In this document: positions 8,244-8,507 of the stretch, in pieces
How the letters are laid out: the number at the start of each line of letters is the position of its first letter
Position numbering within the stretch: the stretch's first letter is position 1
Assembly: GCF_003018115.1 (NCBI RefSeq)
Contig: NZ_CP027457.1
Direction: 5' to 3' (one strand)
Source: Escherichia coli
Lineage (GTDB): Bacteria > Pseudomonadota > Gammaproteobacteria > Enterobacterales > Enterobacteriaceae
Length of the DNA: 64,000 nucleotides
The notes under the pieces: model-generated
Seen by the model: the letters and a program-made list of their open reading frames with translations, nothing else
Told to the model about the DNA's origin: nothing
The model's database searches: none
Translations under genes and position numbers: made by a program

Positions 8244-8507
8244 ATGATCGATCTGGAAAACCAGGAGCGGGAGATTATCAATTTAATGTTAAGCCAGCGT
8301 ATTTCCTGGCTAGCTGCCGTGCGTATCAGGCATAAATTATCGCTTGCTGAAGTAAGTAAAATGTTAGGTATCTCGATTAATTCTCTAAAATAGATCGAAA
8401 AGACGGAACGGTTTAGCTCAAACATCAAAAGCAAAATGGCAGAAATTTATGGTTGTCCACCAGAGTTGCTGATATGCCCTTCCTGGATGACGGCTGAACA
8501 TAAATGA
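8244..8507 (+). pseudogene. XRE-family helix-turn-helix ORF (87 codons) interrupted by an in-frame TAG at 8391-8393
   Basis: strong SD AAGGAAGG before ATG 8244; frame reads MIDLENQ...LSLAEVSKMLGISINSLK-TAG-IEKTERFSSNIKSKMAEIYGCPPELLICPSWMTAEHK-TGA; GIS-x4-LK-(amber)-IEKTE resembles the XRE recognition helix (ISQIERGE type). Confidence 0.45.

Follow-up and report, generated by a model that had tools for sequence, protein, structure and literature searches.

A widespread amber allele, probably null, of a small helix-turn-helix gene in the yjjJ/hipH slot of Escherichia coli

In Escherichia coli K-12, the position between lplA and deoD is occupied by yjjJ, or hipH, which encodes a HipA-family Ser/Thr kinase toxin; the gene is monocistronic, its product has an N-terminal HTH (PMC8262856), and its promoter is regulated in response to c-di-GMP (PMC11452175). 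In the window, by which we mean the whole 64-kb stretch of E. coli DNA analysed here, the same two neighbours enclose only 455 bp, filled in large part by an 87-codon reading frame with a Shine-Dalgarno sequence and one in-frame TAG. An earlier, sequence-only reading had described the interval in just these terms and had placed yjjJ there in K-12; both statements agree with the sequences. It offered two origins for the frame: a recently inactivated small regulator or antitoxin, or a remnant left after the loss of yjjJ. The locus raises the questions of what the interrupted gene was, whether its stop codon is real, and what became of the kinase gene.

We consider it highly probable that the window carries a dead allele of a small, Escherichia-centred XRE-family HTH gene, with an amber codon at Gln-50, in the slot of a replaced yjjJ/hipH. 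The history has two steps. The small gene replaced yjjJ/hipH between the lplA stop and the yjjJ start, leaving the yjjJ 5' region (8496-8608) in place, and the CAG of Gln-50 became amber by one C-to-T change. On this reading the strain lacks hipH at this locus, its substitute gene is inactive, and the control region of hipH is left without its gene.

Layout of the lplA-deoD interval

The features on which the argument depends are as follows, with the basis of each in brackets.

7196..8212, plus strand: lplA, lipoate-protein ligase (ORF; lplA label in identical RefSeq loci)
8232..8240, plus strand: Shine-Dalgarno AAGGAAGGG of the HTH gene (direct reading; ATG at 8244)
8244..8507, plus strand: XRE-family HTH pseudogene, 87 codons, amber-interrupted (translation, Pfam, RefSeq label, intact alleles, dN/dS, AF2)
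8391..8393, plus strand: TAG, codon 50 of the HTH gene, in the middle of the predicted recognition helix (C-to-T at 8391 relative to the CAG of the nearest intact allele)
8499..8501, minus strand: yjjJ/hipH start-codon relic, CAT on the plus strand, which is also His86 of the HTH frame (K-12 alignment)
8505..8537, minus strand: three tandem ATCTATTCA boxes at a 12-nt pitch, with plus-strand TGAATAGAT at 8505, 8517 and 8529 (of the orphaned 5' regulatory region of yjjJ, these form the proximal part)
8594..8602, minus strand: distal ATCTATTCA box, at about -100 from the relic yjjJ ATG (motif count and alignment)
8609..8636, minus strand: deoD terminator hairpin AAGCCGGAG / CTCCGGCTT, with a T-run after it on the minus strand alone (inverted repeat and sequence)
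8668..9387, minus strand: deoD, purine-nucleoside phosphorylase, the downstream neighbour (ORF; annotation of identical loci)

The HTH frame closes at a TGA (8505-8507), and the TAG at codon 50, in the context ...GISINSLK*IEKTERF..., is its sole interruption. Its ATG lies 31 bp beyond the end of lplA. No terminator-like site was recognised between lplA and the HTH ORF by the rules of the scan tool, and the gene is probably co-transcribed with lplA upstream of it. A promoter scan of the interval was uninformative, its single promoter-like site overlapping the HTH start codon. At the other end, the nearest of the tandem boxes overlaps the HTH stop codon. The deoD terminator hairpin is conserved in loci with the small gene and in loci with yjjJ alike. 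An Rfam search of the interval returned no family, and a sub-threshold snoRNA match, the only one, was taken as chance.

On the minus strand, the relic yjjJ ATG opens a 27-codon ORF (8418-8501), probably meaningless, that extends in antisense direction into the HTH gene. If the relic hipH promoter still fires, an antisense RNA to the HTH transcript would arise.

A genuine stop codon on one common haplotype

Codon 50 was typed by megablast in 5426 complete E. coli genomes with short, 55-nt probes, sited such that a mismatch in the codon leaves no 28-mer seed. TAG was found in about 1709 genomes (about 31%), CAG in about 2067 and CAA in about 169. Together the three account for 3945 of the 4057 genomes with the small gene, and about 110 fall outside the three probe counts. 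The 455-bp interval as a whole matched at least in part in 5421 of the 5426 genomes, with at least 80% of it covered in 4057, and the match was exact in 5. The full interval was matched at 99% or more in 1694 genomes, and since this count is so close to that of the TAG carriers, the stop codon lies on one tight haplotype with a single origin, which shows that the mutation arose once. Its carriers include O111, O121 and O169:H41 strains, and in RefSeq the identical loci already label 8244-8507 a pseudogene ("helix-turn-helix domain-containing protein, internal stop").

These figures settle whether the TAG might be a sequencing or assembly error in a strain whose gene is in fact intact, a concern that the sequence-only reading had raised. 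An error would involve a single base and nothing more, but the same TAG and the same haplotype recur in all of the independently assembled carrier genomes, five of them identical over the whole interval, and RefSeq records the internal stop as well. We regard a base-call error as excluded, its probability being vanishingly small. The stop is genuine, inherited and widespread, and should be neither "corrected" nor handled as strain-specific.

The nearest intact allele, from O157:H7 (WP_000566150.1), differs from the window by 5 nucleotides in the ORF, among them the C-to-T at 8391; the other four are 2 synonymous and 2 non-synonymous changes, too few to gauge relaxed constraint. In all nine other alleles examined, codon 50 is CAG, CAA or CGG. 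The earlier proposal of a single C-to-T change from a glutamine CAG thus matches the intact alleles, and intact versions are common among E. coli genomes. Its suggestion of a recently inactivated small regulator or antitoxin holds as far as an inactivated gene of that kind is concerned, the kin being RelE-paired HTH antitoxins (see below), and fails on "recent" in the sense of strain-specific, given one haplotype in so many genomes.

Two other lesions of the gene were seen. An independent nonsense allele, W81* (TGG to TGA), is present in E. coli 536 (L007, 719-721), where the last 7 residues are lost; it is rarer than TAG, with 30 genomes. In strain TBU0218_10-1CC, an IS1 element is inserted in the TAG-allele pseudogene (L009, 3026-3813), which is annotated there as two fragments. 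Both fit a dispensable gene.

A further alternative is translational read-through of the amber codon, owing to a supE-type suppressor or to the codon's context, such that a full-length regulator is made at a low or conditional level, the allele being regulated rather than dead. The frame downstream of the stop is open, the haplotype carries few additional changes, and the TAG allele is very common, all of which such read-through would accommodate. However, a young haplotype would account for the low diversity just as well, the IS1 insertion in one strain's TAG allele fits a gene that can be dispensed with, and no suppressor tRNA was found within the 64-kb window, where the only tRNA genes are three for tRNA-Leu(CAG). 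Amber suppressors are, moreover, rare in natural isolates. We judge read-through very unlikely and continue with the allele as inactive.

The intact gene, its selection and its predicted fold

The annotations of EC12, E17, O157:H7 SS17 and SE15 include an intact protein of 87 aa, and WP_000566150.1, WP_000566145.1, WP_000566246.1 and WP_000566247.1 represent the intact forms. These RefSeq/PGAP proteins are orthologous to the frame in the window, being encoded at the same locus between lplA and deoD by the same 87 codons, with alleles beyond that of O157:H7 at about 90-95% protein identity; the window differs from them in holding a null (TAG) allele. With Gln-50 restored, the window frame matches Pfam HTH_3 (PF01381) at 28.5 bits, and the EC12 allele does so at 25.2, against a gathering cut-off of 23.

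Nei-Gojobori dN/dS among intact E. coli alleles is mostly 0.1-0.3, on small counts, and rises to 0.4-0.8 in pairs that include one of the divergent Escherichia lineages L013, L017 or L018. Against a 43%-identical orthologue from another genus (L010), it is 0.22-0.33, with dS saturated. These comparisons mark the parent gene as real and under purifying selection.

A confident AF2 model from a shallow alignment (pLDDT 89.4) places helices at residues 4-18, 22-29, 34-41, 45-54, 59-69, 73-76 and 80-85. The first and last of these lie outside a five-helix core, in which helices 2 and 3 form the HTH as expected of the fold. The top Foldseek matches are XRE repressors (CylR2, C.BclI, DdrO, SinR, 434 Cro and P22 c2), and the resemblance to solved XRE/Cro-C1 structures amounts to an rmsd of 1.5-2.1 A over 53-60 residues (CylR2, dr_2454, the DdrO N-terminal domain, 434 Cro and P22 c2). 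In contrast, sequence identity to these proteins is 16-30%, every Foldseek E-value exceeds 0.01, and the protein extends beyond theirs by a helix at its N terminus (residues 4-18) and by a tail at its C terminus. A sequence search of the PDB returned only a weak match to CylR2 (E 0.5), and PADLOC returned only a generic HTH model.

The sequence-only reading had called the frame a Cro/C1-type HTH interrupted within its recognition helix and had made its interpretation depend on the frame being a conserved protein. The Pfam score, the model and its structural neighbours bear out the assignment, the intact orthologues bear out the conservation, and codon 50 falls in the middle of the predicted recognition helix (residues 45-54). 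Since the stop lies there and truncation removes helices 4 and 5 of the predicted fold, the 49-residue product would be unable to form the domain or to bind DNA.

Range of the family and its antitoxin kin

Full-length relatives were found only in Escherichia and Shigella, plus one orthologue, in searches that covered 5.8 billion word-indexed proteins and, with HMMER, 1.84 billion representatives. Among GTDB species representatives, only two further loci came to light, both in Escherichia. The one orthologue comes from another Enterobacteriaceae genus, and the range outside Escherichia is given by the single 1.4-kb Logan contig that carries it. It is 87 aa long and 43% identical, lies in the same lplA-HTH-deoD order, and follows an lplA that is 80% identical at the nucleotide level.

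Outside this orthologous group, the nearest kin found by tblastn are 30-37% identical over residues 3-77 (E 2e-6 to 2e-4). They are the C-terminal halves of HTH proteins of 118-129 aa encoded directly 3' of RelE/ParE toxin genes, on the Leclercia plasmid pZ96-1_2 (WP_225988006.1) and in Pasteurella phage Pmp14 (gp33). Resembling these are a metagenomic protein and one of 102 aa from a Xenorhabdus plasmid, and a match to phrog_7241 (E 2e-9) backs the antitoxin link. The E. coli protein shares with the RelE/ParE-linked antitoxins a helix before the XRE core and a Gln at the position of codon 50. It lacks their additional N-terminal domain, some 45 aa long and Phd-like by a weak match, and it has a 10-residue C-terminal tail of its own. 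They follow a toxin gene, whereas the E. coli gene has no toxin neighbour, and no toxin-like ORF was seen beside it between lplA and deoD.

Homology to the DNA-binding domain of antitoxins is therefore present, and a cognate toxin and a toxin-neutralising N-terminal domain are both missing. The intact protein is best read as a solo, antitoxin-derived HTH of the repressor type and as putatively DNA-binding. The antitoxin ancestry is suggested by 30-37% identity along some 75 residues, in a fold that is very common.

Three other leads were followed and set aside. A HipB-like protein was considered, and BLASTP gave no alignment to E. coli HipB at E <=100, in a weak comparison with an approximate HipB query sequence. 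An apparent 71%-identical homologue, P0036 (L011 and L012; Logan SRR18740011 and SRR13921544), carries substitutions that look like systematic C-to-T conversion, many of them to F, L, V or W, and it is probably the product of bisulfite-type or deaminated reads and no real variant. PLSDB "plasmid" matches in E. coli, considered as evidence of mobility, include several records of 4.8-4.9 Mb that are evidently chromosomes, and the rest, at 0.4-1.3 Mb, are chromosome-like; none speaks for mobility. NZ_CP134663.1, NZ_OL790696.1 and NZ_CP141089.1 are E. coli records of 4.8-4.9 Mb that are filed as plasmids.

Two occupants of one locus

Among the 5426 complete E. coli genomes, about 4057 have the small HTH gene and about 1348 have yjjJ/hipH. 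By megablast, yjjJ is found once in each of its 1348 genomes, except for one genome with two places, and none is detectable elsewhere in genomes with the small gene. The two therefore appear to be alternative occupants, with no genome holding both. The sequence-only reading had left room for a yjjJ-type kinase elsewhere in this genome, and megablast speaks against that for small-gene genomes as a group. As a consequence, hipH, studied in K-12 as a toxin tied to persistence and c-di-GMP, is lacking in some 75% of the complete genomes, where a different gene fits its slot exactly. The literature searched contained no papers on the small gene, the two forms of the locus or the box motif described below.

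In K-12, yjjJ/hipH lies on the strand opposite to that of the HTH gene, and the space that it fills begins immediately past the stop codon of lplA and reaches to its own ATG. The replacement has its breakpoints at the stop codon of lplA and the start codon of yjjJ. Beyond E. coli, yjjJ comes directly after deoD in Salmonella, Citrobacter freundii, Kosakonia, Cedecea, Erwinia and one further relative, and in all of these loci lplA follows yjjJ, except in Erwinia, where ytjB does. Because the deoD-yjjJ synteny reaches out to Erwinia, we take yjjJ as the ancestral occupant and the small gene as the replacement. Comparison of the two forms for raised divergence in the flanking lplA and deoD gave nothing striking. 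One yjjJ-bearing lineage with a 70%-identical YjjJ has, between deoD and yjjJ, a repeat array of REP/BIME-like type and an extra 163-aa ORF (L019, 2356-3323).

That the HTH frame might instead be a degraded piece of yjjJ, for example the N-terminal HTH left after deletion of the kinase, is suggested by its place, exactly at the K-12 position of a gene whose product does begin with an HTH (PMC8262856). The frame is, however, on the opposite strand, and it shows no sequence relationship to YjjJ (the best BLASTP hit, at E 0.2, spans 6 residues). It is homologous to RelE-linked antitoxins and not to HipH, and megablast of 8213-8498 against yjjJ loci gave no match, the K-12 match beginning only at 8499. 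We reject this origin for the ORF as extremely unlikely. The kinase gene itself is missing from the window, which retains its start codon and the boxes upstream: from 8499 to 8667, the window is 82-84% identical to the deoD-yjjJ intergenic regions of K-12 and B2, ATG and four boxes included. By this alignment, 8496-8608 is the orphaned 5' region of yjjJ. The earlier idea of a remnant of yjjJ thus holds for the flank and not for the ORF.

A conserved four-box element upstream of yjjJ

Exact copies of TGAATAGAT, the plus-strand form of the box, number 4 in the window (8505, 8517, 8529 and 8594), against 0.29 expected in 64 kb. On the yjjJ strand they stand at about -100, -35, -23 and -11 from the yjjJ ATG. 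All seven yjjJ-bearing lineages that were examined (L005, L021, L022, L019, L027, L028 and L029) show the four-box layout at corresponding positions. The boxes are exact in K-12, Kosakonia, Cedecea and Erwinia and nearly exact in Salmonella, Citrobacter and one further relative, and the sequence between them has diverged beyond recognition in all seven. Judged by this conservation, the boxes are a strong phylogenetic footprint of a putative yjjJ control element, and they are likeliest a candidate operator for the N-terminal HTH of HipH itself. The element is an obvious candidate for the promoter-level regulation of hipH that PMC11452175 leaves unexplained.

In lineages with the small gene, the boxes erode. 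Two are mutated in the E17/ST131-type allele, the divergent Escherichia lineages L013, L017 and L018 lack one of the tandem boxes, and a single degenerate box is left beside the orthologue in another genus. Because of this erosion, the boxes in the window are regarded as relics and not as co-opted sites. All four are exact in the TAG haplotype, and they could still be in use and not merely left over.

The competing view is that the intact HTH protein was co-opted to bind the retained boxes, in which case the TAG allele removes a working circuit. The boxes adjoin the gene, the first overlapping its stop codon, all four are exact though yjjJ is gone, and the small gene and yjjJ both encode HTH domains. 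Against co-option, across genera the boxes go with yjjJ and not with the small gene; the 43%-identical orthologue has a lone degenerate box, and the E17-type allele and the divergent lineages show erosion; and the position of the boxes is 3' of the HTH gene, where no gene remains under their control. We think co-option unlikely and retain the reading of the boxes as relics.

At its plainest, then, the finding is an ordinary pseudogene, common and already annotated automatically, with the two forms of the locus and the boxes as modest side results. A bolder proposal, to which we give a slim chance, is that the boxes are the hipH operator and that the antitoxin-derived solo HTH may still act on the retained operator, or on incoming hipH-type promoters, as an anti-addiction or immunity factor. 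If that were true, the amber allele would mark a protection lost across a major E. coli lineage.

Other features of the window

Elsewhere in the window, naRNA4 (CssrE)/REP-type elements (Rfam RF02564) occur as a tandem array of four copies, repeated about every 100 nt (15629-16007), and as one separate copy (2537-2615). The three tRNA-Leu(CAG) genes mentioned above are clustered at 23966-24287 on the plus strand, and the SymR antitoxin sRNA (Rfam RF01809, 95 bits) lies at 61587-61663 on the minus strand.
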